This document shows positions 4,361 through 46,756 of a DNA stretch of 64,000 nt, in pieces. How positions within the stretch are numbered: position 1 is the first letter of the stretch; every line of letters starts with the position of its first letter. Source of the stretch: Candidatus Gottesmanbacteria bacterium (GTDB taxonomy: Bacteria > Patescibacteriota > Microgenomatia > UBA10105 > UBA927); assembly GCA_016214885.1 (NCBI GenBank), contig JACRMP010000025.1, forward strand, positions 44,025 through 108,024, written 5' to 3'. A model generated the notes under the pieces. It was not told where the DNA came from. It did not search any database and worked only from the letters and a program-made list of their open reading frames with translations. The translations under genes were made by a program, and so were the position numbers.

Positions 4361-4732
4361 TTGCCTACTTGTGATATAGTTATATCTATGGATGATCGCA
4401 GAAAAACCATTGCCGCACTCACGATCATTATCGGGGTAATCGTCCTTGTTGTCATCATTATCGGTATTATTGTTTCCGGAAAAAAAGTAGTTTCGCCGGT
4501 ACCTGATGAAGGGGCAATCAGAGTCATATTTATGAGCCCTACCCCAATCGTAGCCGTTACGGTTGAGCCAACCCCCACCGTCACCGTTAAGCCGGCAGCA
4601 ACAACCAAGCCAACAGCAAAGCCCCAGGCAACCGCTACTCCCAGACCGAGTCCCAGCGCAACACCTACCGCGGGGAGTACGACACCTACCGTGACTCCAA
4701 CACGCACACCTACTCCCAGTCCAACGCCTTAA
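4361..4732 (+). CDS. Hypothetical membrane-anchored protein with a Pro/Thr-rich low-complexity tail
   Basis: A single N-terminal TM helix followed by a (T/P/A)-rich linker. The antisense ORF 4300..4707 is its compositional shadow. Confidence 0.45.
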   Translation: MPTCDIVISMDDRRKTIAALTIIIGVIVLVVIIIGIIVSGKKVVSPVPDEGAIRVIFMSPTPIVAVTVEPTPTVTVKPAATTKPTAKPQATATPRPSPSATPTAGSTTPTVTPTRTPTPSPTP

Positions 4733-4734
4733 CC

Positions 4735-5307
4735 ATGGAATTCCTGCTCGCGTATGATCAAAAATTATTTTATCTGGTTAACCGGCTTCCGCATACACCG
4801 CTTTTTCATACCATAGCGCTTTTTTTATCAGGTGTGGGTTTGGGAGCACTCCTTTGGGTGGGTATCGGACTTATCCTGTTTCTCAGGGAAGAAAAAAAGG
4901 ATCACCGTTTTTTTATCCCGATTGGGCTGGCACTGGGGATGAGTTGGATGATTGTTGAGCTGTTGCTTAAGAATATTGTTATGCGAGCCCGTCCGTTTGT
5001 GAACGCGATAGATGGGGTGATAGTTGTGGGTGGCGAAGCGTCTGGATATTCATTTCCGTCTTCACATGCCACCACGGCATTTGCGATGGCGGTAGTGTTA
5101 TCTTATTTTGAACCGCGGCTGAAAGAGGTATTTTTTGTGCTGGCGGCCTTTGTTTCTTTATCCCGGGTATATATGGGAGTGCATTTTCCGGTAGATATAG
5201 CAGCAGGAGCCATTATCGGGGTGTGTATTGGTATCGGATCTGTCCGCGTAGCCTTACAAGTATCACGGTTGAAGCGTGTATCGTCGCAAAAAAAGAAGAG
5301 CAGGTAG
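4735..5307 (+). CDS. PAP2-family lipid phosphatase (undecaprenyl-diphosphate/phosphatidate phosphatase-like)
   Basis: PAP2 motifs K..RARPF, SFPSSH and SRVYMGVHFPVD; about 5 TM helices. Confidence 0.75.
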   Translation: MEFLLAYDQKLFYLVNRLPHTPLFHTIALFLSGVGLGALLWVGIGLILFLREEKKDHRFFIPIGLALGMSWMIVELLLKNIVMRARPFVNAIDGVIVVGGEASGYSFPSSHATTAFAMAVVLSYFEPRLKEVFFVLAAFVSLSRVYMGVHFPVDIAAGAIIGVCIGIGSVRVALQVSRLKRVSSQKKKSR

Positions 5308-5316
5308 TGTATCTAT

Positions 5317-7077
5317 TCAACGGGTAATTTTGTAAATGACAGAAACCCCGTCATCATAAACGACATCAAACTTCCAGCTGATAGCCTCGGGAATGCTCAC
5401 CGCCACATCTTCCTGAATCGTAACGCCCGGCGTGGGAGCTTCGTTTCTGAAGGCATATGATGGGTAGCGATGCCTAGCCGCGCGAAGTCGCGCCATATCG
5501 ACAGGGTTAGTATGATACAGCGTAATTGGACGAAATATAACCGCCGGTATCCAGAGCCCTGCATCATCATAGCGGTTCCATATAACATCATGTACGTTTG
5601 TGTGTGCGGCAAGCCAGGATAATGCCTTCATGGAGGTTATTGATACTCCTTCATTATTTTTTGCTTCCGCAAGGAACTGGGTTACATGGAGACGCGGTAT
5701 AAACACCAAAAGCATAAGCGCGATGCTTGTTAGATACAGCGCGCGGCTATATTTCCTTGTTTCATACAGGAGTAACGCCACGCTCCAGGCTATGGGGATT
5801 AGCAGAATAAGTGAAGTACGGTACGGATACAGGATTGAAGACAGGGGGAGCCACCAATGTCTTGCGTTTATGGTAAAGAAGTAAACAATCCCGGTAATAT
5901 ACAAAAAGAAGAAGATTAGCTTCCGGTGCGATCTAAACAATAGTATGCCCGCCGCAGTAAAAAGCAACAAGAGCTGTGTGTCCGTGAGAGCGCTTATTAT
6001 TCCCGAGATTTCGGTGAGTCCTTTCCAGGAAAAAGTACCCGTCCATGCAGATGTTTCTTCCCAGTGAAGCGTTTGTATATATTGCCGGGTGGCATCGGGT
6101 AGTTTCCAGCCCGATCTCAGAATTTTTATAATAAACGGAAAAACAGTCATGGTGGCAATTATTATGCTCCGGGCATATGGCGCTATCAGCGTTTGTATCC
6201 GGCGGCCTGCCGGGAATATTAAGAGCGTAAGCGGTATACATAGGTATATTGCCGTAATGACAAACATGTAATTGGTTAATAAAGACGCATATACAACAAG
6301 AGCGATAAGTAAGGGATATTTGCCCTTGTTGTGCAGGAAAATGGCAACGGCAAAAAATAATAACGTGAGCGAAAGTACGGAAGGGTTTGCTCCCCAGGCA
6401 ATAAATAAGTGAGGATTGGTGCTCGTCCATGCAACGATAACAGAAGTCACGGCACTGATAAAAAAAGGAAACCGAGACCGGAGGATTACATAGAGTGAAA
6501 AGTCGAAGAGAAAATGGGCTACTCCGGAGAGTATGAGTGCGTTAGTATAGACCGGCAGGGTATTGAATAGGGTCATGGCCGCAATGATGGTAGAAAATCC
6601 GAACGGATACAGCCCGAAATCGTTCACAGGCAGGATTGGTATGAAGGTACGGGGGAATCCATCAGTATTCGCAATAAGTGCAGCGATATAGGTATGCATA
6701 GACATATCCTTGCCGCCCGGAGTTATCTGCTGGGATATAAGATATAGCTGCGGGGTAAGCAGAGCGCCAATAAACAAAAGGATCGCGGCGTTGTGTAGTA
6801 ACGCGTGCTTGTTCCGTTGGGATGCCGGGTATTGTCCGCGCCAAAGATATACACTGGCACCGAGTGTCAGGCCAAGCGTTGCCGCAATAAATATGGTTAG
6901 AGAGACCGGAGTAATGGAGAGCCACCAGAATCCAACAATCCAGTAGGTGAGGGATACGGCAACGGCTAAGGGAATTTTTTCTAAGACGGAAAGCTCTTCC
7001 GCGAATTTTTTCTGGAAAATAATGATACTCCCCGGGACCAATAATACAGTAAGGGTCAGAATAAGCGGCACTATCAT
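5317..7077 (-). CDS. Large polytopic membrane protein, putative GT-C-type glycosyltransferase or glycan polymerase with a C-terminal soluble domain
   Basis: More than 12 predicted TM helices over ~450 aa, then a ~120 aa hydrophilic C-terminus. No motif could be recognised by eye. It lies between the PAP2 and UppP genes. Confidence 0.45.
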   Translation of the reverse strand: MIVPLILTLTVLLVPGSIIIFQKKFAEELSVLEKIPLAVAVSLTYWIVGFWWLSITPVSLTIFIAATLGLTLGASVYLWRGQYPASQRNKHALLHNAAILLFIGALLTPQLYLISQQITPGGKDMSMHTYIAALIANTDGFPRTFIPILPVNDFGLYPFGFSTIIAAMTLFNTLPVYTNALILSGVAHFLFDFSLYVILRSRFPFFISAVTSVIVAWTSTNPHLFIAWGANPSVLSLTLLFFAVAIFLHNKGKYPLLIALVVYASLLTNYMFVITAIYLCIPLTLLIFPAGRRIQTLIAPYARSIIIATMTVFPFIIKILRSGWKLPDATRQYIQTLHWEETSAWTGTFSWKGLTEISGIISALTDTQLLLLFTAAGILLFRSHRKLIFFFLYITGIVYFFTINARHWWLPLSSILYPYRTSLILLIPIAWSVALLLYETRKYSRALYLTSIALMLLVFIPRLHVTQFLAEAKNNEGVSITSMKALSWLAAHTNVHDVIWNRYDDAGLWIPAVIFRPITLYHTNPVDMARLRAARHRYPSYAFRNEAPTPGVTIQEDVAVSIPEAISWKFDVVYDDGVSVIYKITR

Positions 7078-7862
7078 AAAGAAATTATCGTCCAGTAGAT
7101 GCCTGCTACGATAATTCGGTAAATACCGAATCCCGTGAATGTCGACTTGGTTACAAACCGGATAAATCCTTTGATGACAATAAATGCGGTGATCCAGGAT
7201 ACTACAAAACCGGTGGCTAAAATACCGAGCTCGCCGGGGGTAAATGCATGCGCATTTTTAAGTAGATCCAATCCGGTAGCGGCGGCCATAGTCGGAACTG
7301 CAAGCAGAAACGACAGCTCAACGGCGTCCTTGCGGGATAAACCGGAAAGCATACCGCCGACAATAGTTGCTCCTGCCCGTGAAACTCCGGGTATCATGGA
7401 AAAAGACTGGAATAGACCTATGGTGATAAGCGTTTTAGTAGACAGGGTCATAAGCGTTGCAGTGTTTTTTTGGGGATGTGCCCGCCAGTACCACTCAATC
7501 GCGATCAGAACCAAGCCTACTCCGGCTAATGCTGCTACGACTACCATGTCATTATTCAGAAGATGGGTTTTAATTGTTTTATAAAGCAATACTCCCAGCA
7601 CGCCTGTCGGCAGAAATGCGATAAAAATTGGTTTAATTATTTTTGGTTCACCCAGTATCCTGCGGAAATAAAGCGAAACCACTGCCATTATCGCACCCAA
7701 CTGGATAAAAATATCAAAACTCTTGGTAAATTCGGTAGCGGGAATACCCAGTAATTTTGAGGCTAAAATAAGATGCCCTGTCGAAGAAACGGGGAGAAAT
7801 TCGGTAATTCCCTCAATAATCGAGAGAAATACGACATGAATTATTTCCATGACATTCATCAT
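7074..7862 (-). CDS. uppP: Undecaprenyl-diphosphatase UppP (BacA)
   Basis: Signature EGITEFLPVSSTGHLIL and the SRSGATI-like motif (SRAGATIVGG). The ORF could extend to 7904, but the Met cluster at 7857-7862 fits the family N-terminus. Confidence 0.85.
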   Translation of the reverse strand: MMNVMEIIHVVFLSIIEGITEFLPVSSTGHLILASKLLGIPATEFTKSFDIFIQLGAIMAVVSLYFRRILGEPKIIKPIFIAFLPTGVLGVLLYKTIKTHLLNNDMVVVAALAGVGLVLIAIEWYWRAHPQKNTATLMTLSTKTLITIGLFQSFSMIPGVSRAGATIVGGMLSGLSRKDAVELSFLLAVPTMAAATGLDLLKNAHAFTPGELGILATGFVVSWITAFIVIKGFIRFVTKSTFTGFGIYRIIVAGIYWTIISL

Positions 7863-7876
7863 ACCAGATTGATATA

Positions 7877-8428
7877 ATGAATCCCATGATACGCATGAAC
7901 GCAAAGGAGTTAAGGACTACAGAGGTGGATCCGGCTATCGCTGCATCTATCGCGAAAAATCGCATTACCATTATTTGTGACAATGTACTTGATACCTATA
8001 ACGTGGGATCAATATTTCGGCTTGCAGATGCTGTGGCGGCAGAAAAAGTAATTTTATGCGGAGCAACCCTTACGCCGCCTAACTCCCGTATAAAAAAAGC
8101 ATCCATTAATACCACGGGGTGGGTTAATTGGGAATATAGCATAACCGCAAAAGAAGCGGTGGAAAAGCTGAAAAAAGAAACCCCCGGTATAGCCGTTGTT
8201 GCGGTGGAGCAGGATAGCCGCAGCAAGCCGTTTTATCAGGTGAAATACACATTACCGCTTGTCATAATTGTGGGTAACGAAACATCGGGCGTTTCCCCTG
8301 AGGTGCTTGATATGGCAGATCTTATTGTCGAGATGCCGATGTGGGGAATAAATACCTCACTGAATGTTATGGTGTCGGCGGGTATTATCCTTTACGAAAT
8401 CATGAAGCAGCAGGCTCCCGGGCATTAG
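7877..8428 (+). CDS. SpoU/TrmH-family RNA 2'-O-methyltransferase
   Basis: SPOUT motifs LADAVAAEKVILCG, VIIVGNETSGVS and EMPMWGINTSLNVMVSAGIILYE. Confidence 0.75.
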   Translation: MNPMIRMNAKELRTTEVDPAIAASIAKNRITIICDNVLDTYNVGSIFRLADAVAAEKVILCGATLTPPNSRIKKASINTTGWVNWEYSITAKEAVEKLKKETPGIAVVAVEQDSRSKPFYQVKYTLPLVIIVGNETSGVSPEVLDMADLIVEMPMWGINTSLNVMVSAGIILYEIMKQQAPGH

Positions 8429-8439
8429 ATTGGTCAATT

Positions 8440-9048
8440 ATGATACTCTCGCTGCCGGAAAAAAAGGTAATCTTTTCATTTTTTATTGGTATCCAGGCGG
8501 CAGGTGGAAAAAAGTATGAAGTATTGAATTTGGGTGAGAGCGCCTATGATGTTGATTTTATGATACGACGTTATGAGTTAAGGGGCAAAAAATACAATCC
8601 TGACATCATTGTTATGTTATTGTGCGAATGTGACTTTACCGAACTTGCCGGAGTGATGGATCGTATGGTAGACAAACACGAATATGCCCTGCTTAGGACA
8701 GGGAATATAACTAACACTATGGCGCGTAAAGCTCAGGCAATCAAAGAAGCTCATGACGACCTTATACGCATGACCGATAATAGAATTGAAGCATATCAAC
8801 TCGAAAAATTGCAGGAGTTTCTTAAATCAGTAGACCGGCCGGTGCTTTTGCTGACTGATGATTCAACCAGTCCGCGGGGAGTCCTCGAGTTACGGACAAT
8901 GACAACACTCAGATCCGATATATATTTCAGTATCTTACCCGCCTTTGACCGTTTGCCTGATATGCATCCATCTGCAGAAGGATACCGGCAGATAGCGGAG
9001 GACATATATGGTGATCTGTTGCGTTTTAGTATTATCGCCGTACACTAG
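8440..9048 (+). CDS. SGNH/GDSL-hydrolase-like paralog, N-terminally truncated (lacks block I GDS(L)); possibly a degenerate copy
   Basis: Aligns with the C-terminal two-thirds of the 10841..11842 protein (LNLGESAYDV...YNPDIIVML...DMHPSAEGYRQIAEDIY). No TM anchor and no GDSx nucleophile block. The ORF upstream of 8440 overlaps trmH. Confidence 0.45.
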   Translation: MILSLPEKKVIFSFFIGIQAAGGKKYEVLNLGESAYDVDFMIRRYELRGKKYNPDIIVMLLCECDFTELAGVMDRMVDKHEYALLRTGNITNTMARKAQAIKEAHDDLIRMTDNRIEAYQLEKLQEFLKSVDRPVLLLTDDSTSPRGVLELRTMTTLRSDIYFSILPAFDRLPDMHPSAEGYRQIAEDIYGDLLRFSIIAVH

Positions 9049-9139
9049 CATTGATGAACAAATGGAATAAATACTCTCCGAATTTCCGGTGCCTGTTTTG
9101 CAGGAAATCATGATTTTTCACCATTTGTGATGTAATTAT

Positions 9140-10123
9140 ATGCTGGTAAAGCGGTTATGCCTTATAGGTATAGTGTTTCTGGAGATAGGCATTATTGTCT
9201 GGTGTGTTGTGGCGCTGATCAGAGCAACACACAGCAGGGCTGTGGTGCAACAGTACGCGGTGCGATTGTCTCCGATGGATTATAAGCAGGTGCCGACCGA
9301 GCATCTTGCCAATTATTACGAAATCCTGCCGGGGGTAATCATTGAGGAGCGTCCGCCGTGGGGAGGGGAAGCTGTTTTTCACAAGATAAATAATCAGGGT
9401 CATAATGATCCGGTTGACCGAATGATTTTTAAGCAGCCTGGTGCCTACCGGGTAGTGGCATTGGGCGATTCTTTTACCTTCGGGCAGTATGTTTCCGGGG
9501 ATAAAAATTATCCGTCACGTTTGCATGCCGCCCTGTCGCGGCATATGATGTGCGGTATTTCACCTGAAATGATTAATCTTGGGGTGCCTGGATACGATAT
9601 ACAGTATGCAGTAGAGCGGTTTGTGACACACGGGAGATACTATAATCCTGATCTTATTCTCTGGCTACTTAAGGACGATGATTTTGACGATATCCAGTAA
9701 TATACCCTGCTGCAGAAAGGCATCATAGAAAATGAGGCTTCGGCAGCAGGCAAGACTGCCGAATATACAAAAAAGAAGGGAATATTTTTCCCGGAGGTAA
9801 TGGCGGAAGAACGGCTCCGTGCGGTGTATACGCCGTCGCAAATCCTTTCTTTCCAGCGATCTTACCTCGATGCGTTTATGCCGGCGTATCAGGGGAAGCT
9901 CATTATCTTTACATTTAAGAGTACTAAAAAGGAATATAAGGATATCATGGCGTCATTTGCCCGGGTCAGACCAAATACATGGTTTGCTGATGTCCTCACC
10001 TATAAGGACAGCCGGGTGTGGCGGTTTCCTGACGGACACCCAACGGCAGTCGGGTATGAACAGATGGCGTTTGATATGATGAAGTATCTTACTTCATTGG
10101 GCATCGTGCCGTGCAGCCGATAA
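9140..10123 (+). pseudogene. Membrane-anchored SGNH/GDSL hydrolase paralog interrupted by a single in-frame TAA (9698-9700); both halves are in the same frame
   Basis: The N-half has the TM anchor plus ALGDSFTFG, NLGVPGYD and YNPDLIL. The C-half (from 9800) has the catalytic DGHP block. 9140 and 9800 are congruent mod 3 and no other stop lies between them. Confidence 0.55.
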
Positions 10124-10163
10124 AATTCTCCCAAATCCGGTTTGATACGCTACAATTATACAT

Positions 10164-10844
10164 ATGCATAAATGGGGTCTTATCGCTGTCAGCATACTTC
10201 TTTTGTTATTTGCGGGGTTATCCAAATACGAAGATAGGGCGTTTATGCGTGACTTTGATTTTTCCGTAACGGTCAGGGTACAGGAGCGGGTCGACAAATC
10301 AGCTCATCTAAGGGCTTCTGCATTTATCGGTAACCTTATGGAGGGTGCCACTTTTTTTGCCAGCCCGGAATTTACGGTGATAGTGACGCTGTTTATTACC
10401 GGTTTGTTTGCCTACGACAGAAAGAAAAAAGTATGGAATTATAAAGCTGCTATTGTTCCTATTGCTTTGGCGGCTATTGTGCTTTTGGAAATTTATGGAA
10501 AGACGATTGTCCATCATCCCTCTCCGCCGTTTGCCATGATAAAGCACCCAACTACTATTTTTCCTGCAGACTATATCAATGATCAGTTTTCATACCCCTC
10601 CGGTCACGCGGCCAGGGGAATGTTTATGGCTATCCTGGTAACTCTTGTCGTTGCTGCAGCCCGGCCAGCACGGAAGAATCATCTGATTGTTGCAATCGGG
10701 TGTATGGCAGTGTACGTTCTTCTCGTTTCGGTAAGCAGGATCTATCTTGGGCATCATTGGTTTTCCGATGTCGTAGGGGGATGGTTTTTGGGTATCGCTG
10801 CCGGTTTTTGCTGCGCGGCAGCACTGTACCGTAAGCACATATGA
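10164..10844 (+). CDS. PAP2-family phosphatase (second copy)
   Basis: YPSGHAARG and SRIYLGHHWFSDV motifs on a multi-TM protein. Confidence 0.7.
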   Translation: MHKWGLIAVSILLLLFAGLSKYEDRAFMRDFDFSVTVRVQERVDKSAHLRASAFIGNLMEGATFFASPEFTVIVTLFITGLFAYDRKKKVWNYKAAIVPIALAAIVLLEIYGKTIVHHPSPPFAMIKHPTTIFPADYINDQFSYPSGHAARGMFMAILVTLVVAAARPARKNHLIVAIGCMAVYVLLVSVSRIYLGHHWFSDVVGGWFLGIAAGFCCAAALYRKHI

Positions 10845-11842
10845 GTGTTGCAATAAAACGGATTATTCTGGGTATTGTCGTACTGGCGGAAGCAGGAGCA
10901 GTCCTCGTATTGGGGATTCTTCTGCTACAAGCGCTGCAGAAGAAAAATAACAGCATGCGGTATGCAGCACGGCTTCCCCGGCACCTCTATAGCACGCGCA
11001 TAACAAGCGACAGATTTCCACATTATTTTGAGCCGGAAATAAATGCAATTATCAATGATCAGCCTGATTGGTTGGATTATGAGGCTTCCTATTCAATAAA
11101 TGCCGACAGTTTTAATGAACGGGATGATTACTCCGTGACAAAAGCCCCGGGTACCTTCCGTATTATTACTCTTGGTGACTCATTCACCTACGGATTATTG
11201 GTAAACACCTATGAAAATTATTCCGAGCGTCTGGAAGATAAATTAAATGATGGACGTTGTCCGGAAACGCATTATGATGTGATCAATTTGGGGGTTCCCG
11301 CCTATGATGTGGGGTTTGCCGCCGAACGGTTTAAATTGCGCGGTCAAAAGTATAATCCCGATCTGGTAATTTGGTTTATGAATTTTTTTACCTTTCTTAT
11401 CGACGCCGACCGCAAAATGGAGTTGGAAACCGAATATCTGGCAAAAATACAGGATAGCGATCTCTGGCAAAAGATAAACGGAAGGGAAACATATTACCCC
11501 GGTCAGCTTGCGTGGATTCAGCATGTAGGAGAAGTGCCGGAGGAGATGCGGATTATGAAACAGGTTGCGTATTTTCGTGAGTTTTTGGATTCGTATCAGG
11601 GCCCGCTACTTATTGTGGTTAATGACGTGTCTTTGTGGCGGCCTTTAGCAAAAAACAGTCTTGAGCAGGCGCTTCTGTACCGGGATAACGCCGGAATATA
11701 CCCGATGGATCCGTTAAAGTCCGAGGGGGAACTGCTGGCAGATGGGCATCCTAGTGTTGCCGGGCATAAAAAAATCGCGGAAAATATTTATACCTATCTA
11801 TACTCCCATCAGCTGGATGCCGGGAAGGGTGTTTGCCGGTAG
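10841..11842 (+). CDS. Membrane-anchored SGNH/GDSL hydrolase (intact paralog)
   Basis: N-terminal signal anchor, block I ITLGDSFTYG, block III NLGVPAYD and block V DGHPSVAGH. Confidence 0.75.
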   Translation: MSVAIKRIILGIVVLAEAGAVLVLGILLLQALQKKNNSMRYAARLPRHLYSTRITSDRFPHYFEPEINAIINDQPDWLDYEASYSINADSFNERDDYSVTKAPGTFRIITLGDSFTYGLLVNTYENYSERLEDKLNDGRCPETHYDVINLGVPAYDVGFAAERFKLRGQKYNPDLVIWFMNFFTFLIDADRKMELETEYLAKIQDSDLWQKINGRETYYPGQLAWIQHVGEVPEEMRIMKQVAYFREFLDSYQGPLLIVVNDVSLWRPLAKNSLEQALLYRDNAGIYPMDPLKSEGELLADGHPSVAGHKKIAENIYTYLYSHQLDAGKGVCR

Positions 11843-12017: not shown

Positions 12018-12154
12018 TCTTTATTGCGGTCGACGGGGAATCAGTGTGATTTCTTCTCGAAACTATATAGCCCTTTAACAATCGAATGGTGATAGGAATT
12101 TTTATTGATGTAAGCAGATTTTTGGTCAAACAAAAGTCCTTATGTCAATTTTTT

Positions 12155-13906
<1,752 letters not shown>

Positions 13907-14996: not shown

Positions 14997-17357
14997 ATGA
15001 ACCCATACCTCAGGGATATACTGATCCGTTTTTTTATCCCGTTTTGTGTCATCGCCATGATCACCGGACTGCTTTTCCGGCCGTTTATTATCCGCGGACA
15101 CATACCGCTTCCTTCGAATTACATGATGGCGTGGTATGAGCCTTGGAAGTCTGAAACGATGGTGAATGGCGCACCCACTATCATTCACAAGCCGGTTATC
15201 GACGATGCGTTTAGGCATTTGTATCCGCTGCGGGAGCTTGCCGCCGCGGTTATAAAAGACGGCCAGTGGCCGTTATGGAATCCCTATAATGCGGCAGGAA
15301 CCCCACTTTTGGGTATTATGCATCCCGGGTACTTAACGCCGTTTGGTATATTTTTTCTTTTTATGCCCTCTCCCGTAGCATGGGGTTGGTATGTTTTGCT
15401 GCAGCTTATTACTTTGGGGGCAGCAGTGTACTGGTACGGAATGACCATGAGATTGTCACCCCGTGCATCGCTTGTTAGTGCAGTAATACTCATGTTGTCT
15501 GGTTTTTCCGTGGTGCGCTTGGAATATGGGGAGTTCCTGTATGTCCTGGCCGGGTTGCCGGTATTGCTTGGATTAATCGAACTCAGGAAGGATAACAATG
15601 CACACAGGAGTATTGTTGTGGTGCCCATGATAGTCGTCATAATGATGCTTTCCGGGCAGCCGCACATGATTATCTATACACTTTCCGTTTTTGCGTTTTA
15701 TACACTTACGCGTCTGCCGCTTGCCGGAACATTCAGGGTTGCGGGACTCGCATTGCTGGGCGTCGGACTATCGGCAATACAGTTAATTCCCAGTGTCGAA
15801 TTGTATACGCTTTCGACCATTACCCAGGAATCAAGCTCATTCATTTTTGATCGGTTTTTATTGCCTTTTGCTCATCTTATTACCATTATTATTCCGAATT
15901 TCTTCGGCAACCAGGCTACGTACAATTATTTCGGCCCGCATGACTATACAGAGACTACGGCCTATGTCGGAACCATCCCGGTTTTTCTTGCATTGGTTGC
16001 GGTCATGAAGCAGTGGAAGGATGTAAGGGTAAGATTTTTTGTCGTCCTTGCGGTTTTATCTATACTCACCACCATTGATTGGTTCGGTGCCCGGTTGTTT
16101 TTTATGCTTCCTATACCGGTGTTGTCGGCAGATGTTCCGAGCCGGATTTTTGTACTGACCACCTTCGCTGTTTCTATCCTTGCAGGCTTCGGATTTTCCG
16201 AATGGGAAGGTGCGTCAGCCGCATACCGGAAGAAAATGCTTACCATAATGGGTATAGTGCTGGCCGCTATTGCCGTTGTGACAGTAGTCGTGTATCAGAT
16301 GAAGGTTCCCTGTCCGTCAACTGAAGTGCCCCAGTGCAGATTGATAAGCCTCCGGACTACCGCGGTTGAACTATCGGTATTTGCAGCGTTCATTTTTGCA
16401 GGATTGGTCTTTGCGAAAACCCGTGGATTAGTCCGTATGGCTGCAGGATGCATGCCTATTATGCTTATTGCATGTATCGGGCTTTATAACGGACAGAAGT
16501 TTTTACCGTTTTCTCCGCCGGAAATGGTATCACCGAAAATTCCTATGATCGCAGAGCTCCAAAAAGAAACAGGAATTGACCGGTATGCAGGTATAGGTGA
16601 CGCTTATATCCGCACCAATTTAATGACAGGCTTTAGAGTGCATAGTACTGAATATTTTGATCCCCTAAACGTCAAACGGTATGCGGAGCTGGTTTCGTAC
16701 GTAAACCATGCCGATATCACAAAAGGGGTATCAAGGAGCGACATATTGGTTAACTCCGATGCAACGGTAAGCGCAGAGTTAGCTAACCGTCGCAACCGGT
16801 TTTGGGATATGACCGGAACGGCGGTAATACTAACAAAAAATGATGCTTCGCTGCCGGCATTTGGTAACGCGGTGTGGGAGGACAAAATTTGGCGTATAAG
16901 CAGGCGGATGACAGCTTTTCCCAGGGCATATGTCGCAGAAAAGGTGCTGGTGGAGCCGGACAGTGCAACACAATTATCCAAGATATTCGATCCTGAATTG
17001 GATATAACTCACACGGCTTTTGTAGAGGATCGCATAGAAGGATTGCAGGGTGTTGGTACACCATCAGGGAAAGCGGCAGTGCTTAGTTATTCCCCCAATA
17101 GGGTGTCAATTAGCGCCGAGGCCTCTACGACATCAATGCTCGTGTTATCAGACACGTATTATCCCGGCTGGAAGGCAACCGTTGACGGCATTGAGCGGAA
17201 AATTTACCGGACTAACTACGCCTTCCGCGGCGTTGTAATTCCGGAAGGTAAGCATACCGTAGAATTCCGCTATGAGCCGGAGTCATTGCGTATCGGTCTT
17301 TGGGTGAGCGCCTTATCACTTATCGTATGGGGTATCTATATTTACCGGAGGAAGTAA
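14997..17357 (+). CDS. YfhO-family polytopic membrane glycosyltransferase (GT-C)
   Basis: ~14 TM helices. The C-terminal domain carries the YfhO hallmark LSDTYYPGWKATVDG...YRTNYAFRGVVIPEGKHTVEFRYEP. Confidence 0.75.
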   Translation: MNPYLRDILIRFFIPFCVIAMITGLLFRPFIIRGHIPLPSNYMMAWYEPWKSETMVNGAPTIIHKPVIDDAFRHLYPLRELAAAVIKDGQWPLWNPYNAAGTPLLGIMHPGYLTPFGIFFLFMPSPVAWGWYVLLQLITLGAAVYWYGMTMRLSPRASLVSAVILMLSGFSVVRLEYGEFLYVLAGLPVLLGLIELRKDNNAHRSIVVVPMIVVIMMLSGQPHMIIYTLSVFAFYTLTRLPLAGTFRVAGLALLGVGLSAIQLIPSVELYTLSTITQESSSFIFDRFLLPFAHLITIIIPNFFGNQATYNYFGPHDYTETTAYVGTIPVFLALVAVMKQWKDVRVRFFVVLAVLSILTTIDWFGARLFFMLPIPVLSADVPSRIFVLTTFAVSILAGFGFSEWEGASAAYRKKMLTIMGIVLAAIAVVTVVVYQMKVPCPSTEVPQCRLISLRTTAVELSVFAAFIFAGLVFAKTRGLVRMAAGCMPIMLIACIGLYNGQKFLPFSPPEMVSPKIPMIAELQKETGIDRYAGIGDAYIRTNLMTGFRVHSTEYFDPLNVKRYAELVSYVNHADITKGVSRSDILVNSDATVSAELANRRNRFWDMTGTAVILTKNDASLPAFGNAVWEDKIWRISRRMTAFPRAYVAEKVLVEPDSATQLSKIFDPELDITHTAFVEDRIEGLQGVGTPSGKAAVLSYSPNRVSISAEASTTSMLVLSDTYYPGWKATVDGIERKIYRTNYAFRGVVIPEGKHTVEFRYEPESLRIGLWVSALSLIVWGIYIYRRK

Positions 17358-17365: not shown

Positions 17366-17437
17366 AGGCGCGTGCCGGAATTGAACCGGCGCATGGGAGT
17401 TTTGCAGACTCCTGCGTTACCACTTCGCCAACGCGCC
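17366..17437 (-). tRNA. tRNA-Cys (GCA)
   Basis: Cloverleaf read from the reverse complement: GGCGCGT acceptor stem, anticodon loop CUGCAAA, T-arm GCCGG-TTCAATT-CCGGC. No encoded CCA. Confidence 0.75.
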
Positions 17438-17458
17438 ATATGAACGCTCTTTATTGTA

Positions 17459-19818
17459 TCAAGAATGACGCTTAGGGGACAACCACACAAGATAACCGAG
17501 AGCTAAAATTCCGGCAATCGTACCCGCTAACCCGACTTTCCATGACCAAGGTTCGTATCTAAATTGAATCGTATGTGTTCCCTGTGGTGCAATAACAGCC
17601 CTAAATGCATAGTTTGCCCGGTATAGTTTGGTATGTTTACCGTCCACATAGGCTTTCCAACCCGGATAATAAGTGTCAGACAAGTACAACATCATGGGGC
17701 CATTTGTCTCCGTTTTTGCTGTTACGGTATTTGCGGTATACGCGGTAATCACCGCAGAACCGGTTGATTCGCTGCGGAGTGATTCAGCGGGTCGTTCTTC
17801 CAGAAACAGCGTCTTTCTGATGTCAGTGCCGGTAGCATAGAGGGATGTAAGGATCTTATTTCCGTCCGGTTCGATCCGTATATCGGTAAACAGATGCACC
17901 CGGGGCAATGCACCCTCATGTTCGTGGACGGCATAGGTGCCGTCATCCCATATACGCGGAAGATTAGAAGGGTCTGCAGCAACAGTCTGGCGGTTGCGGT
18001 CCGGCGTAAGCTTGCGGGCGATATATTTTACCCCCAATAGTTCAAGCGTCTTTTTCCGGTATGGGTCAGCAAAGATGTCGTCGAGATGATCGGTTGACTG
18101 GATAAGAGCGTTTGCGCGGTCGGGGGTGAGCGATGTGCCCCGTGAGTTTGCATACGCCAGAAATTCGGCATACCGCCGTATGATGATGGAGTCATATCCC
18201 TCAGGGGAATACACGCCATACTGCGATGCAAAGTTTTTTTCTATGTAGCCGTTGTCGTAGGTCCAGAACCGGTCATAGCTATGCTTTTTAAGCTCCGTAA
18301 AGACCGGCGAGGCAGGATATACAAACCGCCGTTCGGAAAAATACATATATTTTTTGGCGAACATAAATATATTGCCAAGCAGTATGAGGGTGAGAACCAC
18401 AAAACCAGCCGTTTTTACAGATTTCTTAAGATAGGTAATCCACAGGATGGTGAGCGCGGCTATCATGCTGGCTGCTGGTATTGCCAGATTTCTTAGGGTT
18501 ATAACGTAAGTGGTGTTTTTGTCATCAATGTACCTGCTGATAACGGGTACTGCAGCTGCAGCGATAAAGCTGAGAACTGCGATAATTGTCATCCACATGA
18601 GTACTTTTTTCGGGAGTGTTTTTCCGTATTGTTCTGCCGCAAATGCGGTAAGCACTGATCCCGTGAACGTAACCAGCATCATTATCCGTGACGGCGTCAT
18701 GGTGGACAGTAATGGAAGCTTCAGATAATACAGGATAAGCCAGGTGGTGGGGATAGAGAGCGTAAGCGATAGAAAAATCAAAAATGTAATCCGGAAAAAT
18801 TTTCCATGTATGGCCGTCGACTTCCATTGCAGCAGCTGGGAAATGATAAAAAGAAACGGCACCACCCCAAGAAACATAAGTCGCTCATGGTAGAATCCAC
18901 CACCAAAATAGTTATACGTTGCGGGATTGCCGAAATAATCCGGGGCAAATACCGTCACCAGCCGGGTGAGCGGCAGCAGATACGCGTCAAAAATGTATTT
19001 GACATCGGTCGATACCCGTGTTGAGAGTGTATATGCTTCCATATTCGGGATAAGGTGGATAGCGCTTAAAAGCAGTGACAAGGGTATAGCGCTCCCCAAG
19101 GAAGCGAGCGTTTTTATGCTGTTTGGGGAATCTAAGCTCCGGTAGAGTATCCAAATTCCGGTAAACAGATACACATAAAATGTCATCTGAAAAGCTCCCG
19201 ACATTACAGAAAGCGCCAGAGAAGCAGCAAGAAGTGCGACCCAAACGCCGCTTGGTTTTTTCATGTACCGCTCAACAGCGGTAAGCCCGACCGGCAGGAA
19301 TAGTGATGAATAACCGAACAGATAGCTTTCCTGCCACCATGTCATGAAGAACCCGGAAAACGCAAATGAAATTGATCCAACAAACTTAGCCGGGCGGGAA
19401 AACCGGAGCGAGCCAAGGAACACATACATAGCCAGAGCGGTAAGTATTGGCTGGAGTAGCATGATGATGCTCCACGCATCGATAGGAGGGATTACGGAAA
19501 ATAGCCACGACAAGGGGTGGAATATCGCTGATTGGAAAAATTATGGGGGTTCCATAGGGGTATTTCGCCGCGCTTTAGCGAGTCTACCGCAACCGTTTTT
19601 ACGGGAAAGTAGATCCGTACGTTATCAAATCCCATCGCTTTGTTAGGCGGACCGTTAGGGTATTCCGGGACAGGATATGAACGCCATGGTTCGTAGTAGG
19701 AGACGAGTAGGTTTGCGGGAAACGGGACTAAACTTTTAACAAAATAGTCACGGAAAAGAAATAAAGAAAAGAAAATAATAATGAGAATGGGTACAAACTG
19801 TTTCCAAGGCGCGCGCAT
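17459..19818 (-). pseudogene. Second YfhO-family paralog, disrupted by a frameshift at an A5/T5 homopolymer (~19526-19530)
   Basis: The N-terminal fragment (19818..19492, SYYEPW...LWNPHN) and the main body (19513..17459) both align to the 14997 paralog. Reading frames switch between NPHN and AIFHP, which straddle the T5 run. The C-terminus is YYPGWKAYVDG...FRYEP. Confidence 0.6.
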
Positions 19819-19898
19819 AGCCCTAAGCGTATCAGCAACACTCCTAACTTTCAATTGAGGCTGAAGCCCGGCTTGTGATACAATTATCGAGTTGATTT

Positions 19899-19970
19899 GG
19901 GTGCGTAGTTCAGTGGTAGAACGCTTTCCTGATAAGAAAGAGGTCCATAGTTCGATTCTATGCGCACCCA
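19899..19970 (+). tRNA. tRNA-Ile (GAU)
   Basis: GGGTGCG acceptor stem, D-loop AGTTCAGTGGTAGAAC, anticodon loop CUGAUAA, T-arm TTCGATTC. No encoded CCA. Confidence 0.8.
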
Positions 19971-20015
19971 CCCAATATCACTGGAATTTAAACTCCCTGC
20001 CCCAATTGTATCGAT

Positions 20016-37046: not shown

Positions 37047-37904
37047 TTAAGCAGTCCGCACCGGGCGGGGGGAAATTGCATTGCCAACGTCACTTGTCAT
37101 GATTGCCGTCACTTTGTCTCCTACGGTTCTCAAGAACGATGATGGGTTGTCGGAAGATACGGGTCCATTGAGTGCTTCGTTCATTGACTCTTTGTATTGG
37201 GGATCAAAATCGATAAAGATAATTTTTTTAGCTTTCAGGATGGTAGAAATTCCCTGGGTGATGGCATGCACCGGGGATGTTTGCTTGCGCACCACCTGGT
37301 CACGGTGTACGGTTTCCGGCGAGAGTGCCGTAATGTGGGTGGGGAGCTCCTTGGGGGTGCCTTTTTCATTAAATCCTATGTGTCCGCCGCATCCGATGGG
37401 GTGGAGCACCAGATCGATGTCCTGGGCGGCCAGTAAGGCTTCGTATCCTGCAGCGACTGCTTCACCGTTTGTGCCCGGATCAGCGGGTATTTCGTGGATA
37501 TTAGCCGGGTTTATCCCAAGCGGAGTCCACACATTTTCCCGTAGATACTTGCGGAAGCTGTCGGGGTGATCAGCAGAAATAGGGAAGTACTCATCCAGAT
37601 GAAACGCCTTAACATCGGCAAATGATACCTGCCGCTCAGCCGCTAATTTAGCCAGCTTTTCATAAACTGACTTTGCCTGGTTGCCGGTAGGGAAAGAAAT
37701 TGCTGCGTCAGGCTTCTGTTTGACGACTTCCAGAATCATTTCAGCCGTGAGTCTGGCTGCTTCGTCATGGGTAGGGAGTACGTAGACGTGGGATAGCTCC
37801 GGGTTCTTGAGTTCAAGTATCCGGTTTTCCCAGAATCCAAGGGGCACCCCTCCCGTGCTGGGAAGCGTATGGATTTCGACGCGTTCGTAGGATATAACAC
37901 TCAT
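37047..37904 (-). CDS. nagB: Glucosamine-6-phosphate deaminase
   Basis: FPTGNQ, VSFADVKAFHLDEYFPI...HPDSF and GGHIGFNE blocks matching NagB. The ORF upstream of 37904 is likely non-coding. Confidence 0.8.
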   Translation of the reverse strand: MSVISYERVEIHTLPSTGGVPLGFWENRILELKNPELSHVYVLPTHDEAARLTAEMILEVVKQKPDAAISFPTGNQAKSVYEKLAKLAAERQVSFADVKAFHLDEYFPISADHPDSFRKYLRENVWTPLGINPANIHEIPADPGTNGEAVAAGYEALLAAQDIDLVLHPIGCGGHIGFNEKGTPKELPTHITALSPETVHRDQVVRKQTSPVHAITQGISTILKAKKIIFIDFDPQYKESMNEALNGPVSSDNPSSFLRTVGDKVTAIMTSDVGNAISPRPVRTA

Positions 37905-38033
37905 AGGTCTTGCAAAGACCCATAGTATACGCCTCGCAAGGCAAAATAGCAAGCTATGCCCCAAGCCGCACCAGTAATCATCCCACTAGCGGGTGGGTGT
38001 CGATAGAAGCCTTGGCTTCTCCTCGAAACGTCC

Positions 38034-39842
38034 TTACTTGACCGTGACACTTTTAGCCAGGTTTCTGGGCATATCCGGATCAAAGCCCCGTTCCAGGGTG
38101 AGGTAGTAAGCCAACAATTGACCCACAACCACATTGGGGATGATTGATGCCTCTCCGATATCGGGAACCGGGATATACTCATCAAATACATCTTCTTTTG
38201 TCGGCGCCACTCCGATGATGTGGGCACCCCTCGCTTTCATTTCCATTGCATTGGCGATTGCCGACGCATGGTGCTGGTCATTGGGCGCATACACGATGCA
38301 GGTGGCACTTTTGGTAATAAGTGCCAAAGGTCCGTGTTTGAGCTCGCCTGCGGACACTCCCTCCGCGTGGATGTAGGAAATTTCCTTTATTTTGAGCGCG
38401 CACTCCATGACGGTGACATATGATATGCCCCTGCCGACGACAAACAGATGCTCGGCGTTTTTTAGTGATCCCGCTACATCCTTAATCAGCTTGACGTTTT
38501 TTTCCGTCAAAACCGCACGGGTGGCTTTTGCCGCTTGGGCGACTAATTTTTGTCCCGTCTTCGTGTCATTATTCATGGCATATGCCATGAGGATAAGTTG
38601 AGCGACTGTTGCCGTAAATGCTTTCGTCGACGCCACCCCTTTTTCGGGACCGGCGCCTATTGGCAGCGACAAATCCGACATGCGCCACAACGACGAGTTG
38701 ACGACGTTAACGAGCGACAGCACTCGCGTGCCGTGCTCTTTTGCCCGTTTAACAACATCCAGAAGATCCATCGTTTCGCCCGATTGCGACATCACAAGCA
38801 TCACCGCATTTTTCGGCAAAATGTCTATATGATGATGCATTTCCGTAGGACTGCTCCAGTTAGTTATTTTCTGTCCCACCGTGGCAAAATAATATGATCC
38901 CGCCCGTGCCGCATACCCGCTGGTACCGCTGCCCACCAGGTAAATGCGCGAGGCTTTTTGCAATTCGCGCGCCAATGCTGAAGCCTGCTGGGTCGAATCT
39001 GCAGCTATTTCTGAAAGCATACCCGGCTGCTCATGGATTTCCTTGAGCATAAAGTACGGGAATTTCCCTTTTTCCGTCTCCTCAGCAGTCCAGGTGAGTA
39101 GCTGTTTTTTGGGCCTTATACGTTCGCCGGAATGTGCATTGAAAATATGGATATTCTGCCGGGTGACTACGACCATTTCATCATCCTCCAGGAAATGCAC
39201 CTGCTTGGTGTAGGGAAGTAGCGCTACCGGATCACTGGCGAGAAAATTTTCTCCGGTGCCGAACCCTACCACCAGGGGGGAGCCGTTTCTTGCCGCCACC
39301 ATTTCATCTGCCATGGTATTTATGACAATGATGGCATTTAAACCGTCCAGATCCTTAAATGTAGCCTGTACTGCTTTGGAAAAAGCAGGTGCTGCATCCC
39401 GGGGGAGCACCGAGAATTTTTTAAGATATTCCTCGACAAGGTGCGCGATTACCTCTGTGTCTGTTTCCGACACGAAGACGTGACCCTTTTTCTTGAGTTC
39501 GTTTCTTAGCGTCTCATGGTTTTCCACAATGCCGTTGTGGATCACGGCAATCATTTTGGTGCAGTCAAGATGCGGATGGGCATTTTTGTCCGTAACGCCG
39601 CCGTGGGTGGCCCATCGTGTGTGACCGAACGCTAGTGAGCCGGGCGGGAGATCGCTTACTGTAGCGGCACCGATTTTGCCTGCCTTCTTTTTTACAAATA
39701 TAACTTTTTTTTCATCCGCCGAATCAGGTACCACAGCAACCCCCCAACTATCGTAACCCCGGTATTCCAGCGTTTTTAAACCGGTGAGTACCATACTGGG
39801 GGCAGTTTTTTTATCCCCGATATATCCGAAAATGCCACACAT
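38034..39842 (-). CDS. glmS: Glutamine--fructose-6-phosphate aminotransferase
   Basis: MCGIFGYIG Ntn glutaminase N-terminus, two SIS domains, and C-terminal ...KSVTVK. An AAGGAGGG RBS lies 8 nt upstream. Confidence 0.95.
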   Translation of the reverse strand: MCGIFGYIGDKKTAPSMVLTGLKTLEYRGYDSWGVAVVPDSADEKKVIFVKKKAGKIGAATVSDLPPGSLAFGHTRWATHGGVTDKNAHPHLDCTKMIAVIHNGIVENHETLRNELKKKGHVFVSETDTEVIAHLVEEYLKKFSVLPRDAAPAFSKAVQATFKDLDGLNAIIVINTMADEMVAARNGSPLVVGFGTGENFLASDPVALLPYTKQVHFLEDDEMVVVTRQNIHIFNAHSGERIRPKKQLLTWTAEETEKGKFPYFMLKEIHEQPGMLSEIAADSTQQASALARELQKASRIYLVGSGTSGYAARAGSYYFATVGQKITNWSSPTEMHHHIDILPKNAVMLVMSQSGETMDLLDVVKRAKEHGTRVLSLVNVVNSSLWRMSDLSLPIGAGPEKGVASTKAFTATVAQLILMAYAMNNDTKTGQKLVAQAAKATRAVLTEKNVKLIKDVAGSLKNAEHLFVVGRGISYVTVMECALKIKEISYIHAEGVSAGELKHGPLALITKSATCIVYAPNDQHHASAIANAMEMKARGAHIIGVAPTKEDVFDEYIPVPDIGEASIIPNVVVGQLLAYYLTLERGFDPDMPRNLAKSVTVK

Positions 39843-39889
39843 AGTTAGCCCTCCTTAAGAGCAATAGTCCTAAATTAGGATTATTGAAA

Positions 39890-40120
39890 ATATTTTATGA
39901 AGATATAGAGAAGAGATACGGACTCCGTTGTTTGTCGTTCTATGCCCCGCCTTACGGAGAGGTTTCTCGCAAACATTGCGGTGGGGAGTGCCACCGAGGG
40001 GTTTCCGCAGATACTCCCCGCCAATCAATTGATACTTCAATCGAAGGCGAGGGTCCGATTTCTCCGCCAGCTGGCGGAGACCCCTTCCTCGTATCCCCGC
40101 AGTCGGCGGGGCCACACGCT
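39890..40120 (-). ncRNA. Candidate glmS ribozyme/riboswitch in the glmS 5' leader
   Basis: The minus-strand RNA contains AGCGUG..CCCCGC-CGACU-GCGGGG..GAUACGAGGAAGGGG..CGGCGG..CCCCUC..CUCCGUAAGGCGGGG. These resemble the glmS core elements (AGCGCC, GACGAGG, GGAGG/CCUCC pairing, CGGCGG, CCGUAAGG). Long insertions relative to the Bacillus type make the call tentative. Confidence 0.4.
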
Positions 40121-40281
40121 TACCATCTTTCCAGTTGCCGTACTCTGTAAATGTGCCTTTCTGTATCCCTATGCTACCCCCGGGTTATGTAGTTGTCAAA
40201 TTCCAGAGAGGCACAGCGAAGGGCTATATTTCTTAGTGTCTTGTCCTATAGATTTTTATGTGGTAGAAACACAGATAAGCA

Positions 40282-40926
40282 ATGAAAGAGCGCAACGAAT
40301 ACATCGCCGTAATGGGTACGATGGGCAGCGGAAAAACTACTGCCGCCAATCTGCTGGCCAAGGAACTCCGGTTCACCCTCGTTGAAGAAAACGTCAAAGA
40401 AAACGCATTTTTACCCCGGTTTTATAAGGATATGAGCCGTTGGGCGTTTCATTCCCAGGTATTTTTCCTGATGGAAAAAATCCGCCAGATGACCGAAACC
40501 AAAAACATCCTGGGAAAATCATCCGTCATTCAGGATACGCCCATTACCCAGGATGTGTATTCATATGCCAAAGCGCAGCATGAACTGGGGCACATGGATG
40601 ATGCCGAGTGGGCGCTGTACCAGAAAATTTATCATGAGTTTACTCCTCATTTTCCCCAGCCCGATCTTATTGTGTTTCTCGATACATCAATTCCCGCTAT
40701 AGAATCCCGTATTGCTGCACGGGGGAGGGAGTTTGAACAGGAGATCCCTACCGATTACCTTACCCTGCTTGATAAGCTAAACCGCAAATGGCTCGAGCAG
40801 AATACCACGATTCCGGTGGTGAGGATCGCCACGGATACGCTCGATATCACAAGGAGCCGCGATGCGCAGGAGCAATTTGCTTCAATGGTGAGGAGCGCGC
40901 TCACCAAGCGTGTTAGTGTACACTAA
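40282..40926 (+). CDS. Deoxynucleoside kinase (dCK/dGK family)
   Basis: P-loop VMGTMGSGKTT, an ERS-like region, and size and family pattern (FLPRFY, FHSQVFFL). Confidence 0.75.
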   Translation: MKERNEYIAVMGTMGSGKTTAANLLAKELRFTLVEENVKENAFLPRFYKDMSRWAFHSQVFFLMEKIRQMTETKNILGKSSVIQDTPITQDVYSYAKAQHELGHMDDAEWALYQKIYHEFTPHFPQPDLIVFLDTSIPAIESRIAARGREFEQEIPTDYLTLLDKLNRKWLEQNTTIPVVRIATDTLDITRSRDAQEQFASMVRSALTKRVSVH

Positions 40927-40934
40927 CTAGTACT

Positions 40935-41585
40935 ATGCAGAAAATTTCCGGGGTATCAGTATGTATATGGGATTTTGACGGCACACTCTACCGGCCGACA
41001 CCTGCACTCACCCAAGCGATCATCGAGGCGGATTACGAGCTAATAATGCGCCACACAGGATGGGATAAGGCAAAGACGGTCGAAGAATTTCATAAAATAT
41101 ATAAGGTGAAAACCCCCAGCAGTACCGAGACAGCGGCGGAACTTGCCGGTATTTCGGTACAGGAAGCGGCGATTGAGTGTGAGTTATATAAAGACCGCCG
41201 GCCGTTTCTGTCCCGGGATCAGCGGCTTATCGATATGTTTGCAAAGCTTACCCACTACACGCATTATTTTTTGGTGAACGGCATACAGGAAAAGGTGAGG
41301 GAGTCGCTTGATGTCTTGGGAGTGTCGCCGGATATATTCCGGGAGTTTGTAACTGCGGAAGTGGTGGGGGTGAATAAGCCCCAGCCGGACGGATTCCGCT
41401 ATATAATGGAAAAGACCGGGTTTCCGGCAGATGCCCACCTTATGATAGGAGACAGAGTGGCAGTCGATCTTGTTCCCGCCAAAGCCCTGGGGATGAAAAC
41501 GTGTCTTGTCTGGAGTGAGGTTACAGACTCGATTGCCGACGTAGTGTTGCCCGAAGTGTACGGTGTTGTAAGTGTGCTAGGATAA
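40935..41585 (+). CDS. HAD-family hydrolase (nucleotidase-like)
   Basis: Motif I VCIWDFDGTLY and motif IV MIGDRVAVDL. Confidence 0.6.
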   Translation: MQKISGVSVCIWDFDGTLYRPTPALTQAIIEADYELIMRHTGWDKAKTVEEFHKIYKVKTPSSTETAAELAGISVQEAAIECELYKDRRPFLSRDQRLIDMFAKLTHYTHYFLVNGIQEKVRESLDVLGVSPDIFREFVTAEVVGVNKPQPDGFRYIMEKTGFPADAHLMIGDRVAVDLVPAKALGMKTCLVWSEVTDSIADVVLPEVYGVVSVLG

Positions 41586-41589
41586 CAAT

Positions 41590-43298: not shown

Positions 43299-43346
43299 CA
43301 AGAGGATTCCATCATGATATAAATAATAAAAGCGCTCAAAGCTTTT

Positions 43347-44276: not shown

Positions 44277-44770
44277 GCACCCTCAAGGAGTATATAAACC
44301 GGGCAAATAACGCCAAAAACGCTTACGAATCGTTTAAAGGAATCCCGACTGATCAAGTTGCGTATAACGAATTTTTCGTGCCTCCCGTGTGTAATAAGAC
44401 GGAAGGACGGCTGAGTGAAGTATTTACGAGAGCGACACGGCGCGGAGCATTTTTATATGACGAAGCGGCATTATTTCCCCTAGCGGAAATAGGCGTCCGG
44501 TCTGTGTTTGGGTTAGACCGTTGGGTACCGAAAGCCCCGAAGCGAGTTGTGGCGGATGTGGTCATTAAAAACCCGTGGGATGCTACCGATGCGTCATGGC
44601 TTGAGCGCTACGGGGTGCGGAATGCACTCGTTGTTTATAGCAAAGCGAATATAACTCATTTGTTTGTCGGGGGAGTTATGAGGAAAAATATATATGTGAT
44701 CAGACCCGTTATGGACTGGTCGCTGCAGGAAAAAATTATGCATGCGCTGCATAAGCACATAGAGCATTAA
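44273..44770 (+). CDS. Hypothetical protein
   Basis: An ORF with good coding periodicity in an operon context; no motif recognised. Confidence 0.35.
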   Translation: MSTLKEYINRANNAKNAYESFKGIPTDQVAYNEFFVPPVCNKTEGRLSEVFTRATRRGAFLYDEAALFPLAEIGVRSVFGLDRWVPKAPKRVVADVVIKNPWDATDASWLERYGVRNALVVYSKANITHLFVGGVMRKNIYVIRPVMDWSLQEKIMHALHKHIEH

Positions 44771-44785
44771 TGATATAATTCCGCT

Positions 44786-46748: not shown

Positions 46749-46756
46749 AATACTAC

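Follow-up and report, generated by a model that had tools for sequence, protein, structure and literature searches.

Probable Strain-Level Decay in a Tandem Array of Membrane-Anchored SGNH Paralogs from an Uncultured Gottesmanbacteria Lineage

Introduction

The SGNH/GDSL superfamily includes TesA (lysophospholipase L1) of Escherichia coli, Axe2 of Geobacillus, and the carbohydrate esterases of families CE2 and CE3. SGNH domains are also found in extracytoplasmic, cell-wall-acting peptidoglycan O-acetyl esterases and transferases (Ape1, PatB, and the C-terminal domain of OatA), and the PatA/PatB/Ape1 and OatA systems link them to an acyl-translocase of the MBOAT or acyltransferase-3 type. A further SGNH-fold hydrolase, CgnD, cleaves the leader peptide from the crocagin core (PDB 8a2n; PMC10070186). 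Here, we describe a tandem array of three SGNH-hydrolase paralogs, two of them disrupted, in a 64,000-nucleotide stretch of DNA (hereafter the window) that is part of a 126,859-bp NCBI contig (locus tags HZB58_). The host is an uncultured, groundwater-type bacterium of the Candidate Phyla Radiation (CPR) whose NCBI record is named Candidatus Gottesmanbacteria. As the best overall explanation of this locus we favor, as probable, ordinary strain-level pseudogenization and loss in an accessory array of envelope enzymes.

Compared with TesA, Axe2, and the CE2/CE3 enzymes, to which it is 10–19% identical, the window family adds an N-terminal membrane anchor, a β-hairpin module, and a helical insertion of ~60 residues. 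The likeness to CgnD (11% identity) is one of fold only, as CgnD is soluble and acts in a myxobacterial pathway for a ribosomally synthesized and posttranslationally modified peptide (RiPP) (PMC10070186). No RiPP or precursor-peptide genes were found among the neighbors scanned or called. The domains of Ape1, PatB, and OatA have a comparable envelope gene context; unlike in those systems, no MBOAT or acyltransferase-3 Pfam family was found among the genes called from ~12 kb upstream to ~0.3 kb downstream of the array in contig L004 or beyond the 16S rRNA gene in contigs L013 and L019. A literature search on Patescibacteria and SGNH proteins returned nothing relevant. In its population behavior the locus resembles the accessory surface loci that are polymorphic among strains of other bacteria, with the same segregating loss alleles at >99.5% identity and adjacent recombination tracts; it differs from them in having no mobile element, repeat, or switch, and in belonging to an uncultured Gottesmanbacteria lineage with a reduced genome.

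Results

Two of Three SGNH Paralogs Are Disrupted in the Window

The three SGNH paralogs span positions 8440..11842 of the window, with a PAP2 phosphatase gene between copies 2 and 3, and their proteins share 27–30% pairwise identity in alignments. An earlier note on this DNA had described a tandem array of three membrane-anchored SGNH paralogs in different states of integrity, and every element that it described is present in the sequence. Copy 3 is intact, as that note had stated; its 333-aa open reading frame (ORF) carries an N-terminal hydrophobic anchor and the motifs GDSFTYG and DGHP. Copies 2 and 3 both carry a hydrophobic N-terminal helix followed by GDSFT(F/Y)G, NLG, YNPD, and D-G-H-P. 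For comparison of alleles we recovered sister contigs, 99.6–100% identical to the window, from about a dozen other samples by exact-protein look-ups.

Copy 2 is one frame of 327 sense codons interrupted solely by the TAA at 9698–9700, and its two halves match positions 4–188 and 200–328 of the family hidden Markov model (HMM) in the same frame, which confirms the earlier description of a gene split by a single in-frame stop without a frameshift. The stop is a single G to T change at 9698 from GAA, replaces Glu187, and falls after the conserved SGNH blocks I and II and before the catalytic His. The comparison of TAA and sense codon among sister strains that had been proposed as a check gives GAA in every other assembly (contigs L004, L002, L022, and L109 from samples SRR12113407, SRR22387876, SRR22388172, and SRR22216449), and in the 90% cluster of copy 2 the five remaining variants all have 327 aa with Glu187, reading DFDDIQEYTLLQ. 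Only three single-nucleotide polymorphisms (SNPs) over 3.7 kb separate the window from its closest sister, L002, the nonsense change among them. In the NCBI annotation, the two halves are separate proteins of 186 aa (MBI5019468.1) and 107 aa (MBI5019469.1), both identical to window ORFs. As judged from its residues, the nonsense product should be inactive, with Ser kept and His lost.

The 202-aa ORF of copy 1 matches only positions 140–325 of the family HMM, the C-terminal 60% of the profile. Relative to sister contigs, which encode 322 aa, it lacks exactly 360 bp (120 codons, in frame) at 8499/8500. The deleted segment encodes the second half of the anchor, the β-hairpin region, and the GDSFTFG nucleophile block. 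It had been proposed that this copy lacks both its N-terminal anchor and its Ser block; loss of the Ser block is borne out, but the true ATG and the first 20 codons, amounting to half of the anchor, are retained, and it is 120 internal codons that are gone. The hydrophobicity of the anchor is gone in this allele and the product, deprived of Ser and anchor, should be catalytically dead. The 360 bp are present in six samples (SRR12113407, SRR22216449, SRR22216447, SRR22216445, SRR22388172, and SRR22387876), on one contig each (L004, L109, L114, L115, and L111/L022) except in SRR22387876, where they are spread over L008 and L002. No microhomology was found at the 8499/8500 junction, and a repeat-mediated or assembler-collapse origin of the deletion was rejected on this ground.

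Intact and Deleted Alleles Segregate among Near-Identical Strains

In addition to the allele of the window, two further alleles were identified among the sister contigs. In allele A, all three SGNH genes are intact, with copy 1 encoding 322 aa and copy 2 encoding 327 aa. In allele C, a 1.6-kb deletion has removed window positions ~8489..10105 and with them both copies 1 and 2. Because codon ~19 of copy 1 runs directly into the final five codons of copy 2, allele C is a deletion and not an ancestral absence. Allele C is found in L005, L019, and L023 (sources ENA ERZ21828318, with a 351-kb contig, SRR22388166, and SRR22387900), and the intact and deleted alleles each occur in at least three samples. 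In sample SRR16110243, one contig (L024) begins exactly at the right boundary of allele C (window 10106) and another (L007) stops at window 8431, ~55 nt short of the left boundary; these contig ends fit a mixture of alleles within one sample. The state of the locus in its sisters, intact or absent, supports the earlier note's description of a fast-evolving, variable locus whose broken copies represent decay. As judged from these alignments and from those with more distant genomes described later, the lesions are derived relative to sister strains, three allelic states exist among near-identical strains, and losses have occurred independently in related species.

Signatures of recombination accompany the deletion. 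All three allele C contigs share an identical cluster of 10 differences in the 57 nt to the left of the junction (window 8432..8488) and none to the right, and the left breakpoint lies within about 12 nt of the breakpoint of the 360-bp deletion. In L005 (SRR22388166), positions ~13680–15080, corresponding to window ~6000..7400, form a mosaic tract that is about 25–30% divergent between flanks that are both >99.5% identical. This tract covers the N-terminal ~360 aa of a 586-aa membrane protein (5317..7077, minus strand) and the 3' end of the BacA gene, and it looks like an allele replacement through recombination.

Polymorphisms among sisters in copies 1 and 2 comprise one synonymous and six nonsynonymous changes, compared with 158 and 61, respectively, in 50 other genes (Fisher P = 0.003). 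This skew fits relaxed constraint on copies 1 and 2, and positive selection would also be possible.

PAP2 and Copy 3 Form a Conserved Core in Related Species

Orthologs of copy 3 were found at 81%, 68%, and 58–55% identity, and copy 3 itself shows no difference from sister L004. The PAP2 and copy 3 pair is conserved in L005, L009, L010, L019, L031, L033, and L038. From its retention in all close relatives, we interpret this pair as a conserved core, with copies 1 and 2 as accessory genes that are repeatedly lost. In L009, from a species at ~78% nucleotide identity, the copy 3 ortholog (81% identical) is preceded by PAP2 and accompanied by an intact copy 1 ortholog (54%) and by an extra SGNH paralog between BacA and SpoU (4501..5475); copy 2 is reduced to an out-of-frame remnant consisting of the anchor and the last 17 codons (7104..7320). 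In L010 (copy 3 68% identical), SpoU is followed directly by PAP2 and copy 3 alone. Intact copy 2 orthologs at 60% identity are present in two more distant genomes; therefore, copy 2, and with it the three-copy array, is old. At least three independent events have destroyed copy 2, namely the nonsense change, the 1.6-kb deletion, and the internal deletion in L009.

A scan with one genome per species identified more than 417 relatives of the SGNH family; where their names are informative, most belong to Microgenomates or other Patescibacteria. In 76 species-level loci, a profile census yielded 94 full-length copies, with at least two hits within 8 kb in 29 loci; tandem sets of two or three copies are common among these loci. 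Split or truncated copies occur in 5 of the 76 loci. They include a putatively interrupted member with a single in-frame TGA (L099, 3561–3563), frameshift-like splits in L070 (6806..7761), L074 (7992..9003), and L100, and a truncated copy in L103 (319..828); the broken copies in L100 (1921..2325 and 7695..8761) include short decayed fragments. Coupling of PAP2 to SGNH genes as a rule of the whole family was considered and rejected, given that PAP2 lies directly upstream in 3 of the 76 loci, all of them from the closest relatives.

The Family Is Predicted to Adopt an SGNH Fold and to Act on the Envelope

The AlphaFold model of copy 3 (predicted local distance difference test score 93) consists of an N-terminal helix (residues 3–37), a small β module, an SGNH-type α/β core, and a helical insertion, and according to this model the family has the three-layer α/β/α flavodoxin-like SGNH fold. 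In an alignment of 79 family members G112-D113-S114, N149, and H303 are invariant. The GDS motif of block I is present in copy 3, copy 2, and intact copy 1 and is deleted from copy 1 of the window. Block II corresponds to N149-L150-G151, with N149 invariant and G151 conserved in at least 90% of members. In block V, H303 is invariant and D301 is found in at least 90%, with a D-G-H spacing (DxH) that is one residue shorter than DxxH. In block III, the paralogs read MNFF, KDDD, and CECD after the YNPDL(V/I)IW strand, and the alignment has no conserved Asn column there. The Cys residues C140 and C328 are conserved in at least 90% of members, and this pair, together with the Lys-Arg that precedes the anchor, suggests an outward-facing domain.

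The SGNH protein scores 28.9 and 28.2 bits against Pfam PF13472/PF00657, below the 32.9 gathering cut-off and over profile positions 1–69 (blocks I and II) only; precomputed PF13472 hits are attached to many homologs. No usable NCBIfam match was obtained for the SGNH protein or for the 586-aa membrane protein, and the latter also has no Pfam match. The presence of a PAP2 gene embedded between the copies, as the earlier note had it, is well supported (PF01569, 73.1 bits vs. a gathering cut-off of 27.2, E = 2e-20).

From fold and neighboring genes, the most likely role of these enzymes would be to hydrolyze esters or transfer acyl groups on a glycopolymer or lipid of the envelope. One alternative is that SGNH and PAP2 act on lipids as an anchored lysophospholipase or lipase and a lipid-phosphate phosphatase that harvest or remodel host-derived phospholipids; these bacteria are generally thought unable to synthesize phospholipids. 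In a sequence-profile search of PDB, which matched blocks I and II only, lysophospholipase L1-like proteins and lipolytic GDSL proteins ranked highest. The top structural hits include TesA and EstA, and PAP2 is translationally coupled to copy 3. However, carbohydrate esterases score equally well, and both PAP2 proteins encoded in this region are nearest to undecaprenyl-diphosphatases (for the protein next to copy 3 those of the SepP/BcrC type, with scores below cut-offs). The BacA, GT2, and YfhO neighbors likewise point to assembly of a polyprenol-linked glycopolymer, and we consider the lipid alternative somewhat unlikely.

Gene Neighborhood and Further Disruptions

Five genes occupy the plus strand from 7877 to 11842 (table 1). 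The stop of PAP2 and the start of copy 3 overlap by 4 nt (ATGA), and the SpoU methylase, SGNH, and PAP2 genes appear to be cotranscribed in a putative operon. Envelope-type neighbors comprise BacA/UppP, a second PAP2, GT2 enzymes, two YfhO proteins, and the 586-aa polytopic membrane protein; L,D-transpeptidase, PBP2, and MreB are also encoded nearby. The 16S rRNA gene (12150..13904), which contains a group I intron (12608..12854; Rfam RF00028, 70 bits), begins 300 nt 3' of copy 3, and contigs of several short-read assemblies break at its start (~12174). Elsewhere in the window, the glmS gene (38034..39842) is preceded by a glmS ribozyme (39919..40131, minus strand; Rfam RF00234, 40.5 bits). 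The exact look-ups found no match for the window proteins at 14997..17357 and 41590..42699.

Table 1. Features of the SGNH array and of the disrupted YfhO gene in the window
Feature	Position	Strand	Remarks
SpoU-type methyltransferase	7877..8428	+	First gene of the same-strand string; promoter-like site 7849–7878
SGNH paralog 1 (copy 1), deletion allele	8440..9048	+	202-aa ORF
SGNH paralog 2 (copy 2), nonsense allele	9140..10123	+	327 sense codons, single TAA
In-frame TAA of copy 2	9698..9700	+	G to T at 9698 vs. GAA of sisters
PAP2-family membrane phosphatase	10164..10844	+	Pfam PF01569
SGNH paralog 3 (copy 3)	10841..11842	+	Intact, 333 aa, conserved core copy
YfhO-family glycosyltransferase gene, frameshifted	17434..19971	-	Private 25-bp deletion; outside the SGNH array

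Comparison of 53 genes (~51 kb) with sister contigs revealed two further disruptions in the window. The first is a private deletion of 25 bp at ~19524–19534 (TTTTTC/GGGGACTATACTGCTTGCTACTTAC/CAATCAG, with 1 nt of microhomology) that frameshifts a YfhO gene and splits it into ORFs 19492..19971 and 17459..19513 (minus strand); the gene encodes 845 aa in L013, L014, and L018, and an intact YfhO paralog is located at 14997..17357. A gene for tRNA-Ile(GAT) (19898..19974, plus strand) overlaps the 5' end of this YfhO gene as called in sisters, and the true YfhO start probably lies further downstream (MRAPWKQF...). The second is a CAG to TAG change at 46203 in a 75-aa hypothetical ORF (46107..46334) downstream of the SHMT gene. 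It is common to the window and L030 (SRR22388172), with CAG in other sisters; from this sharing we take it to be a real polymorphism, and the ORF may be no gene. Apart from these disruptions, the window lacks 1 bp at 25545 that four sister contigs have; the site is intergenic and separates divergent genes for an MFS transporter and an RNase H-like protein.

Discussion

In the explanation that we favor, the locus would derive from an ancestral tandem array of three diverged paralogs that belong to a Patescibacteria-wide family. Each of them would be a serine hydrolase or acyltransferase with an SGNH fold, anchored by a single membrane pass and probably extracytoplasmic, that acts on a putative ester substrate. 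Copies 1 and 2 would be dispensable, and different lineages would be losing them through ordinary, irreversible mutations. In the assembly of the window, the G to T nonsense change would truncate copy 2 before His, and the 360-bp deletion would take half of the anchor and Ser from copy 1.

Several points weigh against this explanation. The polymorphism test of copies 1 and 2 is based on just seven sites. The other disrupted gene, YfhO, is also an envelope gene, which could mean that loss is selected rather than neutral decay. Neither the TAA nor the 360-bp deletion was found outside the NCBI metagenome-assembled genome (MAG), which has the further private 25-bp frameshift, and a consensus or assembly error in this MAG or a rare minority haplotype is possible. 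The function is assigned from fold and neighbors only, the canonical Asn of block III is not conserved, and block V has D-G-H and not DxxH.

The first of the alternatives concerning the losses themselves is that they are selected: the SGNH copies and YfhO would decorate a surface polymer serving as a phage receptor or host-contact determinant of this episymbiont, at a hotspot maintained by recombination. Such selection would agree with the independent inactivation of copy 2 at least three times, with the occurrence of intact and deleted alleles in at least three samples each, and with the fact that the third lesion private to the window falls in another gene for envelope glycosylation (YfhO). 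The ~28%-divergent mosaic tract at 6000–7400 in L005, the cluster of 10 substitutions beside the allele C junction in three backgrounds, and the predominance of nonsynonymous changes in copies 1 and 2 point in the same direction. Yet relaxed constraint in a reductive genome should equally produce a nonsynonymous excess and repeated loss; moreover, envelope genes abound in the compared region, so that hits there are unsurprising, and the counts are small. We therefore regard selected loss as unlikely. The more specific proposal that the interval from SpoU to 16S is a hotspot of surface variation, in which homologous recombination would spread SGNH and YfhO knock-out alleles under pressure from phages or the host, is speculative and in our estimate quite improbable.

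A second alternative is that the TAA, the 360-bp deletion, and the 25-bp YfhO deletion are artifacts of metagenome assembly or consensus calling in a strain mixture, the three genes being truly intact. Each of the three lesions is private to a single MAG, intact forms are carried by at least seven independent Logan contigs, and truncated forms of the copies are confined to the NCBI MAG in the cluster listing. Exact look-ups of the 186-aa and 202-aa products gave no match outside this MAG, and a scan of JGI metagenomes for the codon context of the TAA found nothing. In addition, the contig breaks in several assemblies indicate a strain-heterogeneous spot that is hard to assemble, and four gene disruptions in about 51 kb would be high for a real genome. 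Against this, the absence of microhomology at 8499/8500 and the single nucleotide at the 25-bp deletion leave no shared sequence with which to collapse a de Bruijn graph; reads spanning these junctions therefore probably existed. The TAG at 46203 is shared with the independent assembly of L030, a 20-kb housekeeping block (37841..58299) has no indel relative to two sister contigs, and allele C shows that genuine deletions of these genes occur in the population. Taken together, an artifactual origin is quite unlikely, and the lesions are favored as real variants.

A decoded TAA, whether by programmed read-through or by reassignment, that would yield full-length copy 2 could appeal to the single stop without a frameshift and to the open downstream half with its conserved residues, but it is wholly improbable, given that TAA terminates 27 of 50 window genes (TGA 14, TAG 9), copy 2 itself included, that sisters three SNPs apart in 3.7 kb carry GAA, and that neither a suppressor tRNA nor any known recoding RNA element turned up when the whole window was searched for tRNAs and Rfam families. 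The downstream frame is open because the nonsense change is recent. The read-through that the earlier note had entertained is thus not supported, the stop being conserved in no relative and TAA being the main terminator. The same holds for its suggestion of on/off switching: the lesions are one-way mutations, namely a point substitution and nonrepeat deletions, with no simple repeat or invertible element at them. In 7800–12200, we found neither tandem repeats nor significant direct or inverted repeats, and the paralogs (~30% aa identity) are too diverged to recombine with one another. A phase-variable locus was accordingly rejected for want of a reversible mutational device at the lesions.

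The result mostly corrects annotation, in that one nonsense-interrupted gene has been annotated as two proteins, MBI5019468.1 and MBI5019469.1, and the neighboring ORF is internally deleted, and it opens no long-standing question. It also documents three segregating alleles of an envelope-enzyme array in an uncultured CPR bacterium with recombination signatures alongside, separates the conserved PAP2 and SGNH pair from dispensable paralogs, and draws attention to a large, mostly patescibacterial family of membrane-anchored SGNH enzymes, often in tandem, that is without a studied member. If the interval from SpoU to 16S were indeed a hotspot of surface variation, its alleles (all intact, two dead, and two deleted) would form a natural series with which to probe the effect of these enzymes on the envelope of an ultra-small episymbiont.

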